Below the pieces are notes generated by a model. It did not search any database, was not told where the DNA came from, and saw only the letters and a list, made by a program, of their open reading frames with translations. This document shows, one piece after another, positions 10,917-13,679 of a stretch of DNA of 34,318 nt (position 1 is its first letter; each line of letters begins with the position of its first letter). Position numbers and translations under genes: made by a program. The DNA lies in the NCBI GenBank assembly GCA_007131065.1, contig SLRF01000049.1:1-34318 (forward strand), written 5' to 3'. Source of the DNA: Candidatus Saccharimonadota bacterium. GTDB taxonomy: Bacteria > Patescibacteriota > Saccharimonadia > QS-5-54-17.

Positions 10917-13679
10917 TTATTTGTCTACCTTGGCACCTATAGGGCCCTCTAGAACTGCAAATATTTCCTTCATCTTCGACTCTATATCCCTGTCAGTTAA
11001 GGTCTTATCTACAGCAAGAATCTCTACGTTAACTGTTATCGATCTACCGTTTTTGTCGCGGTACTCCTCTTGGAAATCGAAATTTACGTTAGTTATTCTG
11101 TCTAGATGATCTGCTATATCCTGCCACTGGACATCTTCAGGCGCTACAAACGTTACGTCCCTATAACTGGATTGCAATCTAGGTATCGGCTCAAAATCAG
11201 GAGCGCTCCATAAGCGCAATAGGCTTTCGAGATTAATTTCCGCACAAGCTACCGTATTTTTAAGTTTCTTTTTTGTTGCTATGAGTGGATGTAACTCGCC
11301 ATATAGACCGACAGGTTCACCGTTTACTTCCATCGCTGCCTGCCTTCCAGGGTGCAGGTCGGTACGCTCATCACTAGATATATACCTAACCTGTAGATTA
11401 GCTGTAGATATAATGTGGTCGAGAACACCCTTCACCTTACTGAGACTATTTTCTCCTATGCACACTATTCCAACTACATCTTTTTCCTCTGGAAGTATTT
11501 CATCCAATTGAGCGTGGAAGATTCTAGCAAACTCAAAGAAGCCAAATTCCTTCTCTATTGTAGTATTATTTACTACACTATTTACTAGTCCTGGCAAAAG
11601 TGATCGTCGAAGATACGCCTGCTCTGAACTACGAGGATTCTTGAGTTTAAGATGTTCTTCGGTATTTCCAGCAAAAACTTCGATATCTCTATGGCTGATA
11701 AACGGATAAGTTGTAACCTCGTAAAGACCGGAGGCCTTAATATCGTTTCTTAGCGAATCTACCTTAGCTCTTTTAATATCCGGTCTGACATCTGTAGGTA
11801 TGCGATTAGGAAGTGTCGATGGTAGATTTTCTAGCCCAACAATCTTGATTACCTCTTCGTACACATCGGCGGAGTTAGATACATCGGGGCGCCACCACGG
11901 TACAGTAACTCTTATGTAATCATCTAAATTCTCAGCATACCTTCTCGCTCCCATGAACTGCGGATCTTCAGTTATGGCAGAAAGCGGCTGCTCTATAACG
12001 TACCTATCCTTCTCGGGTAATTTCTGCCACTCGCCATCTTCCCTTCGTATATAGTCGCGCGCCTCTATGATTGTATCCCCGCCCACATAAATTGCTACAT
12101 GAGATACGCCGTCGCGCTCTTTCTCATCCAGCTCCACCCATGGCCCGCCCCGGAAAAGCAGATCTCCCGGAGTGAGATTTTCAATGTCGATAGCTTCTCC
12201 GTTTTCGTACTGTTGATGCGCAGTATGGCCGATTGCTATGCCGATTAAGGAGTATATATAGTCAGTTAAATAAGAGCAGTCGAATGCATCCGTTCCATCA
12301 GTCTTAAATCGCGCCCCCAGCTTGTAAGGTTTATCCAGTAACTTACTAGCCTGCTCCTTAATATCGAATTTTTCGGCATCGAACCCTAGAGGCTGTAAGG
12401 ATTCAACTATCTCCTCCTTGGATAATTCCAGTCCTAAGAAAGAGTTTAGTGAGGTGACTCTAACTCCAACGTGCTGGATCCAAGGCCAGGCAGTACGTTC
12501 GCTCTGATAGCTTACTAATTCGGCATCAGTAATGTCCTTGAGCAACTCTAGCGCTCTATGTGTAGCAACCTTAACTGCCTGCAATGGCAAACCACGTTCA
12601 AAGCGAGAGCTTGCCTCGCTACGCAAACCGTTCCTCTTTGCCGTCTTGCGCACAAGAGTGGAGTCGAACGATGCGGCCTCCAGTAGTACCTCCTTAGTCT
12701 TAGCTGTTATCTCAGAATCTTCAGAGCCCATCACCCCTGCAAGGGCTAGAAGCTCTTTATCATCTGCTATCACTAGGTCGCTCGAGCCAAGCATCCTTTC
12801 TGTTCCATCAAGTGTTGTTATTTTCTCTTCATTTTCTGCAAAACGTATGTTGACCTTCCCTTTTATCTCCCCAGCATCGAAGGCATGCAATGGTTGTCCT
12901 GTTTCTAACATGACAAAGTTAGTAATATCTACCACTGCACTGACCGGCTTTATACTATGAAGCCTTAGGTAGTTTTGCATCCATGAAGGAGACGGTATCG
13001 ATGCGTCTTTTATTTTTAGCTTAGTCAAGCAATATTCAGGCACCTCCTCTTGTAGTTGATTAGCGAATAGATCATCTGTATGCTTTTCCTTCTCAAGTAA
13101 CTGCTCGAACCCCTCGAAAGTCAATGCAACTCCAGTATGTGCAGAGACCTCGCGGGCCACCCCCCGATAGCCCTGTAAATCCCAACGGTTGGCCGCCGTA
13201 GTAGTGTCGATAACTATTTGATCACTAGAATACACTTCGCTCAGTGGTAATCCCTCTTCAACTTCATCGCCAAGTTCTAGGATTCCATCATGGTCACTGC
13301 CCAGTCCTAGCTCCTGCTCACTACAAATCATGCCGTGAGAAGTCTTGCCACGGATTTCTGTTTGGTTGATTTTGTGCCCTCCCGGAAGTTCAGCTCCAAT
13401 TCTAGCCAATACTACTCGTTGGCCTTTGCGGATATTAGACGCGCCGCATATCACCTCTAGTTGCTCATCTCGACATGTTACGATAGCAATATTTAGCCTG
13501 TCCGCATTGGGGTGTGGCTTGATATCCTTAATGGTTGCAGTAACGATATTTGAGTCAAAATCAGGAGGATGTATTACGCCCTCCACCTCGATGCCAGCTC
13601 GCTCTAGAGCTTCGCTGACTTGAGTGACGCTTAGATCATCGCCTAGTAATTGGTTCAGTAGTCCGAGTACTATCTTCAT
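10917..13679 (-). CDS. pheT: phenylalanine--tRNA ligase beta subunit with an inserted NlpC/P60-like domain
   Basis: This 920-aa ORF has a tRNA-binding N-domain, B3/4, B5, core and FDX-ACB patterns. It is about 120-150 aa longer than typical PheT. The extra segment (aa ~438-587) has NlpC/P60 motifs. Confidence 0.95.
   Translation of the reverse strand: [920 protein letters not shown]

Follow-up and report, generated by a model that had tools for sequence, protein, structure and literature searches.

Canonical β subunits of bacterial phenylalanyl-tRNA synthetase (PheRS), such as those of Thermus thermophilus (1pys/2iy5), Escherichia coli (3pco), and Staphylococcus haemolyticus (2rhs), have eight domains, and their solved chains span 775-836 residues, with a short turn (seen in 2rhs_B) at the tip of the B5 domain. 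The NlpC/P60 D,L-endopeptidases (PF00877, MEROPS C40), represented by Acd24020 (7cfl), E. coli MepS/Spr, and Bacillus subtilis LytE and CwlO, are secreted or lipoprotein wall hydrolases that occur free-standing or together with wall-binding modules. These two families meet in the pheT gene of a 34,318-nucleotide stretch of DNA from a Candidatus Saccharimonadota bacterium (contig SLRF01000049.1 of assembly GCA_007131065.1; the whole 34-kb stretch is hereafter the window). Its product shares the eight domains, the editing residues, and the pheS-pheT operon with the canonical β subunits, but 150 residues of an unrelated enzyme, a complete NlpC/P60 domain, stand where the canonical chains have a short turn. 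We hold with high confidence that the architecture, its conservation, and the predicted catalytic competence of the inserted domain are real.

Hydrolase domains are nested in other synthetases as well. The INS domain of bacterial ProRS and the CP1 domain of LeuRS, IleRS, and ValRS are clade-conserved, like the PheT insert. They are dedicated tRNA-editing folds with demonstrated deacylase activity, whereas the PheT insert has a papain-like peptidoglycan-peptidase fold that is not known to act on tRNA. With the D,L-endopeptidases, the insert shares (i) the fold, with target-normalised TM-scores from Foldseek (TMt) of 0.76-0.85, (ii) the motif order P-Y-x-W-G, D-C-S, G-D-L-x-F, H-V-x-I-Y-x-G, x-x-A, and A-R-R, and (iii) the Cys-His dyad. 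In contrast to these enzymes, it has no signal peptide and resides inside a cytoplasmic aminoacyl-tRNA synthetase (aaRS) subunit. It also departs from canonical NlpC/P60 domains in having Tyr rather than Gly or Ser two positions after the catalytic Cys (Cys+2), His rather than Arg at Cys+17, a loop before the Cys that is four residues longer, and two additional elements on the surface. Recycling of murein peptides by cytoplasmic NlpC/P60 enzymes does occur in genome-reduced bacteria, as exemplified by Chlamydia YkfC (PMC9928106). A cytoplasmic location, plausible for the insert, and the S1 residues for γ-D-Glu are points of likeness to the YkfC proteins of Bacillus and Chlamydia trachomatis.

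The 920-residue open reading frame (ORF) is unambiguously a complete bacterial PheRS β subunit. TIGR00472 (pheT_bact) matches it in two stretches with 603.7 bits against a cut-off of 402.65, and Pfam recognizes tRNA_bind, B3_4, a B5 domain split in two, the CLM domain, FDX-ACB, and NLPC_P60, the full B1-B8 set of PheRS β domains being present. The AlphaFold2 (AF2) model of the full-length protein, computed with 119 homologues as the alignment, has a mean predicted local distance difference test score (pLDDT) of 93.8 and a predicted TM-score (pTM) of 0.74, with pLDDT values of about 94-98 in the insert region. A Foldseek comparison of this model with the PDB is led by bacterial PheRS β chains of 775-836 residues (E 1e-60 to 1e-72). 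The start of pheT abuts the stop codon of pheS, which lies directly upstream in a pheS-pheT operon. No second pheT is present within the window, and no plus-strand ORF of at least 80 residues overlaps the insert.

Aligned to the S. haemolyticus β subunit (2rhs_B), residue 435 of PheT corresponds to chain residue 444 and residue 589 to chain residue 451, and ~153 PheT residues thus occupy the place of ~6. B5 in the AF2 model runs through strand 403-407, helix 408-415, helix 421-431, strand 434-437, the insert, strand 588-592, and helix 603-614. Because of this order of secondary structure, the insertion is placed at the turn of the B5 β-hairpin, or "wing". The second Pfam B5 stretch covers residues 583-615 (profile positions 34-66). 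A separate AF2 model of residues 433-592 (pLDDT 95.6, pTM 0.90) has short strands at both ends (residues 435-437 and 589-591), which probably pair as a hairpin and would thereby allow nesting without breaking the host domain. Both B5 halves, the other PheT domains, and the editing-site residues are intact.

NLPC_P60 is recognized in PheT with an E-value of 2.6e-14 and 53.5 bits in context, or 57.7 bits for the segment alone (gathering cut-off 23), and the insert sequence matches 22 solved NlpC/P60 chains at E<=1e-3. A Foldseek search with the insert model returns Clostridioides difficile Acd24020 (7cfl) first, with a TMt of 0.85, a root-mean-square deviation of 2.7 Å, and a probability of 1.00, followed by MepS, LytE, CwlO, RipA/B, and YkfC-type enzymes; the top 50 are all NlpC/P60. 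In the model, the insert adopts the canonical NlpC/P60 fold of the D,L-endopeptidase type. This fold is papain-like α+β and non-permuted, and the model for the permuted C92/YaeF family scores 15.3 against a cut-off of 27. Lineage-specific elaborations of the inserted domain are a loop at residues 511-524 and a hairpin at residues 543-556. The original prediction, drawn from the nucleotide sequence, had placed an NlpC/P60 domain at 11919-12368 (residues 438-587) within B5. By Pfam and the 2rhs_B alignment these coordinates are right to within 2 residues, and the profile search that it proposed gave PF00877 at 53.5 bits versus the cut-off of 23.

The same prediction named a catalytic Cys468 and His527 with a Glu at the third position of the triad. 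This numbering proved correct on alignment to solved NlpC/P60 enzymes, the Glu being Glu539. Of 164 insert-bearing PheTs, 160 have both Cys468 and His527. The four exceptions (P0078, P0091, P0329, and P0331) have lost both residues together, the pairs in their place being S/V, S/A, G/Q, and V/Q. A working dyad whose two residues are functionally coupled would be expected to be lost jointly in this way. The four PheTs retain the domain without the dyad, and PheT therefore survives without the predicted activity; these proteins may serve as natural "dead-enzyme" controls. The insert of P0331 is also shortened, to 125 residues. Other active-site positions are similarly constrained: the position of Tyr452 is Tyr in 160 of 165 sequences, and Asp467, Gly505-Asp506, and Arg580 are invariant in the family. 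Glu539 falls within the polar set (His/Glu/Asn/Gln) that characterizes the third residue in NlpC/P60 enzymes.

PheT protein clusters with the insert at the same site number more than 160 and derive from independent assemblies labelled Saccharimonadia or Patescibacteria. The best 120 matches of a full-length search, from ENA, JGI, NCBI, and Logan assemblies, are 896-954 residues long (apart from one 782-residue partial) and 36-60% identical to the query, and PF00877 together with the PheT domains is found in all 120. An exhaustive HMMER search with the insert alone added further PheTs that carry the domain at this point of B5 (profile position 33-36), some with an N-terminal tRNA-binding domain (923-941 residues) and others without it (777-845 residues). 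In each of the ten PheTs scanned, the B5 match picks up again at profile position 12-36 once the NlpC/P60 match has ended. A word-indexed search with the insert alone returned a single fragment, which reflects the limited sensitivity of that search and not rarity. This fragment (L001; positions 165-2258 of ENA ERZ25039550 contig_7481, at the start of a 268.8-kb contig) is 63% identical to the insert. Its pheT homologue carries the NlpC/P60 insert and is broken across frames 3, 1, 2, and 3, probably through long-read indel error or as a pseudogene.

Insert-bearing PheTs divide into two sequence classes. Class A, which includes the PheT of the window, has the motif A-F-D-C-S-Y-L ... I-G-H-T, and class B has the canonical F-D-C-S-S ... 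P-R-x-S-x-x-Q. Nine class B PheTs (P0190, P0200, P0211, P0217, P0238, P0246, P0249, P0251, and P0256) are 777-845 residues long. In the six of these that were scanned (P0190, P0200, P0211, P0217, P0238, and P0246), Pfam gives no match to tRNA_bind (B2), and B3/4 begins near residue 100. A scan of GTDB species genomes with one strict class A peptide pattern found at least 54 genomes with the insert, a lower bound given the strictness of the pattern. An alignment that mixed classes A and B was too divergent for such a scan. The titles of these 54 genomes read Saccharibacteria, Saccharimonadia, Saccharimonadales, Patescibacteria group, "bacterium", or "uncultured bacterium", with one Nanoarchaeia. 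Insert-bearing pheT genes also occur in metagenome-assembled genomes labelled "Candidatus Nanoarchaeia archaeon" or "Candidatus Aenigmarchaeota archaeon" (L021, DATIHE010000064.1; cluster members P0270/P0271). These archaeal labels probably denote DPANN bins contaminated with Patescibacteria contigs.

The insertion is absent from some close relatives. When PheT was queried with its insert deleted, the 25 closest PheTs all carried the domain. From rank 26 onward came insert-less PheTs of 766-787 residues and 35-40% identity, two of them named Candidatus Saccharimonadia. The insert-less proteins have a turn of 2-7 residues (13 in one) at the site followed by the lineage-typical VPWWRPD motif. 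The cultured and genetically tractable Southlakia epibionticum has a PheT of 853 residues (SEML1_0562) that is essential by transposon sequencing (PMC10633639 supplement). In SEML1_0562, B5 runs uninterrupted from 447 to 515, and an NlpC/P60 domain is absent. Taken together, Southlakia and the insert-less Saccharimonadia relatives indicate that the insertion marks a subset of Saccharimonadia-like lineages. A neighbour-joining tree of the backbone has near-zero internal branches and a non-PheT outlier as root, such that its 13 "changes" provide no usable count of gains and losses and support no claim of monophyly.

Within the lineages that carry it, the inserted domain is conserved as strongly as the PheRS editing domain and is under strong purifying selection. 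Mean pairwise identity among 119 insert-bearing PheTs is 0.539 for the NlpC/P60 core, 0.534 for B3/4, and 0.563 for the C-terminal half of B5, compared with 0.433 for the whole protein and 0.282 for the anticodon-binding domain. Distances in the insert correlate with those in the backbone (Pearson 0.45 within class A and 0.63 overall; Mantel test, 0/500 permutations), and the insert diverges more slowly than the backbone (p-distance 0.49 vs 0.585). This correlation is consistent with old, vertical co-inheritance. The guanine-plus-cytosine (GC) fraction of the insert is 0.478 against a comparison value of 0.447, and its boundaries show no terminal repeats, a single 11-nucleotide direct repeat being at chance level and not located at both boundaries. 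Both the GC content and the absence of boundary repeats agree with an old insertion. Throughout a deep radiation of uncultured Saccharimonadia/Patescibacteria, the insert has been passed on together with its PheT backbone.

The likely substrate class can be approached through YkfC. Among the matches of the insert, YkfC of Bacillus (3h41) ranks with the best in both sequence and fold, its 29% identity being the highest in the Foldseek list. In BcYkfC, γ-D-Glu is held by Tyr226, Trp228, Asp237, Ser239, and Ser257, Arg255 (Cys+17) is part of a hydrogen-bond network, and Asp256 (Cys+18) binds the free L-Ala amine (PMC2954226). The YkfC subfamily is defined by this Asp together with an SH3b domain bearing a conserved Tyr (PMC2954226). 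These residues were mapped by motif and spacing along a segment that is ungapped apart from the longer loop before the Cys. Tyr226 corresponds to Tyr452, Trp228 to Leu454 (Trp is the commonest residue in the family), Asp237 to the invariant Asp467, Ser239 to Ser469 (Ser in 143 sequences and Gly in 20), and Ser257 (Cys+19) to Ala487 (Ala in 113 and Ser in 38; Ala is found here in dipeptidyl peptidase (DPP) VI too). Arg255 corresponds to His485, and Asp256 to Thr486 (Thr in 113 and Ser in 19). Four of the five γ-D-Glu S1 residues of YkfC are thus retained in the family, and the γ-D-glutamyl S1 pocket appears largely kept. Unlike YkfC, the insert has no SH3b domain and has Thr486 in place of the subfamily-marker Asp256, which sets it outside the YkfC/DPP VI subfamily.

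The two insert classes differ downstream of the Cys. Class A has Tyr at Cys+2 (Tyr470) in 144 of 144 sequences and Gly-His (Gly484-His485) in place of Pro-Arg, which class B keeps. Tyr470 and the Arg-to-His change at Cys+17 suggest a modified specificity, and the insert may accordingly be described as a putative γ-glutamyl-type amidase whose specificity has shifted. Loss of D-Glu recognition in class A through the change at Cys+17 was considered and dropped, as the carboxylate is held by Ser239 and Ser257 in YkfC (PMC2954226).

We lean, at slightly better than even odds, toward a working PheRS β subunit that bears, at the tip of its B5 wing, a catalytically competent and vertically inherited cytoplasmic NlpC/P60 amidase module. 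In the corresponding mechanism, Cys468 would act as the nucleophile and His527 as the base, with Glu539 orienting His527 and Tyr452 helping to stabilize the transition state. The insert would thus be an active cytoplasmic thiol amidase, and the retained S1 residues point to soluble γ-D-glutamyl (murein-peptide-like) amides as the likeliest substrate class. The module may be autonomous, tethered to PheRS and acting outside aminoacylation. In the simplest view, the B5 wing would offer a streamlined genome a permissive, solvent-exposed site on an essential protein that is produced constitutively. The specific mechanism, that of an autonomous cytoplasmic γ-glutamyl-type amidase, is proposed with moderate confidence from residue correspondences.

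Several points weigh against this proposal. The four dyad-less lineages mean that a non-catalytic role must also exist or suffice. The third-triad position varies across the family (H75, E27, M23, T11, Q10, and D8), with Met or Thr in about 20% of the sequences, and the main class (A) has His or Phe at Cys+17, where Arg is otherwise highly conserved. A cytoplasmic non-YkfC endopeptidase with an open S2 site could attack peptidoglycan precursors and be harmful (PMC9928106). Finally, the proposal leaves the specific tie to PheRS without explanation.

A rival reading is a role in tRNA chemistry. The domain is embedded in an aaRS and not free-standing, its conservation equals that of the editing domain, B5 touches the α catalytic core (bioRxiv 10.1101/067587), and the invariant Tyr470 with Gly484-His485 amounts to a remodelled pocket in class A. 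All of this would suit a Cys-His site whose substrate is Phe-AMP or the tRNAPhe ester of an aminoacyl or peptidyl group, whether as a second proofreading activity, an N-acyl-Phe-tRNA hydrolase, or a thioester-mediated transfer of Phe to an acceptor amine. We consider such a role unlikely, as the γ-D-Glu S1 residues are retained, the four dyad-less lineages have an otherwise normal PheT, and close relatives as well as the cultured Southlakia do without the domain. The editing site also offers no obvious need for compensation. B3/4 residues T253, N254, H265, and E334 are invariant or nearly so in the 119 homologues and align to the Thr/Asn/His and LE.A.FD motifs of T. thermophilus and E. coli. 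In T. thermophilus these are Thr249, Asn250, His261, and the LE.A.FD Glu, which we take to be the editing-site residues of PheRS. Because the B3/4 residues are intact, the insert does not compensate for a decayed editing site, which weakens any reading of the extra editing activity suggested in the original prediction as a replacement. We know of no NlpC/P60 enzyme that uses tRNA substrates, and this too counts against a tRNA-coupled role. A related and rather improbable proposal couples the embedded cysteine hydrolase to the handling of Phe, through a Phe-thioester formed from Phe-AMP or Phe-tRNAPhe or through release of Phe from γ-glutamyl or N-acyl conjugates beside the synthetase, its consumer. 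If true, the thioester form would endow an aaRS with new chemistry for proofreading or aminoacyl transfer, the release form would act as an in-built source of substrate for an organism auxotrophic for amino acids, and in either case a papain-fold catalytic module would for the first time be integral to aaRS function.

The persistence of the domain in four PheTs after loss of Cys and His, as well as the variable third residue, would fit a non-catalytic module. Such a module could bind or scaffold a partner protein, nucleic acid, or a muropeptide-like ligand, or it could have become a non-excisable structural part of B5. Inactive NlpC/P60 binders are recognized, for example NCBIfam RipD, "NlpC/P60 family peptidoglycan-binding protein", which is a weak match here. 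This carries a low probability in our assessment, given that the dyad persists in 160/164 sequences across 36-60% overall identity and that the invariant residues, along with the nearly invariant Tyr452, all surround the active site; moreover, Cys and His are always lost jointly, which implies that they normally work. Activity outside the cell, with PheT or a fragment of it acting at the cell surface or on the host and cutting peptidoglycan in epibiotic attack, is highly improbable. The solved structures nearest to the insert are secreted autolysins, the organism's group is known for epibiotic parasitism, and a gene resembling a type-IV-secretion coupling protein lies nearby, but the N-terminus is an ordinary B1 domain without a signal peptide and the insert lies within an essential heterotetramer of the cytoplasm. 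Furthermore, Pfam detects no SH3b, LysM, or other wall-targeting modules in PheT, and the cultured epibiont Southlakia lacks the insert. The secreted host-wall hydrolase once suggested for this locus consequently finds no support. Origins as a chimeric assembly, a recently acquired selfish insertion, or an element of intein type have the unusual architecture as their sole argument and deserve virtually no credence: independent assemblies yield more than 160 protein clusters with this very architecture, the reading frame is uninterrupted, the composition is not foreign, terminal repeats are absent, and Pfam matches no Hint splicing or homing-endonuclease domain in PheT. Strong purifying selection and co-divergence with the backbone contradict the "selfish domain" that had also been floated. 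Recurrence and conservation refute this whole class of origins, and the initial view of a domain insertion into a normal, essential-type PheT, as opposed to a fusion or assembly artefact, is borne out by profile matches, fold prediction, and recurrence in many assemblies.

The coordinates of the features are collected below. The window covers a housekeeping region of a small bacterial chromosome and contains the 5′ part of the 16S rRNA gene, gyrA, gyrB, a VirD4-like ATPase gene, and pheS-pheT, in addition to genes for a class-Ib aaRS and a ClpB/C-like ATPase, tmRNA, and RNase P RNA. The VirD4-like protein has a VirD4/TraG/TrwB-like core at residues ~380-710 with weak Pfam matches (T4SS-DNA_transf, DUF87, and TrwB_AAD_bind), a hydrophobic N-terminal segment, and a low-complexity C-terminal tail of ~500 residues rich in Ser/Asp/Glu/Pro/Thr. 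The two RmuC ORFs are separated by a 115-nucleotide gap with two consecutive in-frame stop codons, and the split gene (16741-17805) is either a pseudogene or the result of sequence error. The tmRNA tag read by ARAGORN is unusually long at 29 residues (ANAFTSKVNSVLASVSEAFVPRNLATAVA).

Table. Features of the insertion-bearing pheT locus and its surroundings in the 34,318-nucleotide window.
Feature	Coordinates	Strand	Residues or size	Evidence and remarks
pheT, PheRS β subunit, insertion-bearing	10917..13679	minus	920 aa	ORF, TIGR00472, Pfam, AF2, Foldseek
B3/4 editing domain	12528..13040	minus	aa 214-384	Pfam 1e-58
B5 N-terminal half	12369..12497	minus	aa 395-437 (strand, two helices, strand 434-437)	split Pfam B5, AF2
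Inserted segment, complete NlpC/P60 domain	11919..12368	minus	aa 438-587	gap vs 2rhs_B, AF2, Foldseek
Pfam NLPC_P60 core	12057..12332	minus	aa 450-541	PF00877
Tyr452 codon, equivalent of YkfC Tyr226	12324..12326	minus		conserved P-Y-x-W-G Tyr, S1/oxyanion region; motif alignment, PMC2954226
Cys468 codon, predicted nucleophile	12276..12278	minus		motif F-D-C-S-Y; aligned to DCSG Cys of solved enzymes
His527 codon, predicted general base	12099..12101	minus		motif S-H-V-A-I-Y-V-G; aligned to HVxIY His
Glu539 codon, third-triad position	12063..12065	minus		aligned to His of "..iHA" motif in solved enzymes
B5 C-terminal half	11835..11918	minus	aa 588-615 (strand 588-592, helix 603-614, VPWWRPD motif)	Pfam B5, AF2
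pheS, PheRS α subunit	13680..14696	minus		Pfam tRNA-synt_2d 1.5e-96 and Phe_tRNA-synt_N
Coupling-ATPase-like protein	6522-10415	minus	1297 aa	0.5 kb downstream of pheT
Acidic ORF	10433-10861	minus	142 aa	flanks pheST operon; no Pfam match
ORF	14693-15049	minus	118 aa	flanks pheST; 4-nt overlap with pheS start; no Pfam match
RmuC, first ORF	17284-17805	minus		profile 2-128
RmuC, second ORF	16741-17169	minus		profile 168-271
tmRNA	27128-27540	minus	413 nt	Rfam 119.5 bits
Bacterial 16S rRNA gene, 5′ 713 model positions	1-677	minus		runs off left window end
Class A RNase P RNA	33504-33965	minus		near right window end

Both component families are well known, and the nested architecture is, as far as could be established, undescribed. 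No description of it was found in the literature on NlpC/P60 with PheRS, aaRSs, Saccharibacteria, or Patescibacteria, and no solved structure of an NlpC/P60-PheRS combination was found. B5 has been described as a DNA-binding-like helix-turn-helix domain (PMC3275996) and contacts the α catalytic core (bioRxiv 10.1101/067587). It is not discussed under that name in the Mycobacterium tuberculosis PheRS-tRNA paper, and a paper that joins Patescibacteria with PheRS concerns pheS as a counter-selection marker. Insert-bearing PheTs receive the PF00877 tag automatically in databases, and some of them appear at NCBI as "C40 family peptidase" (P0049, QQS27135.1) or "beta subunit-related protein". The original prediction called the insert unexpected. 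This holds in that the domain is absent from ordinary PheT families, close Saccharimonadia, and Southlakia; it needs tempering in that the domain is conserved in a large uncultured Saccharimonadia/Patescibacteria group.

The insert derails the automatic annotation of essential PheTs, and the 150-residue indel provides a clean presence/absence character for subdividing the Saccharimonadia. If the proposed role is real, the B5 wing would be a permissive site and may hint at a role for B5 itself. A large group of uncultured bacteria would then have a second, probably active catalytic centre in an essential enzyme of translation, and this would provide a handle on cytoplasmic peptide and peptidoglycan-fragment metabolism in organisms that depend on host amino acids.

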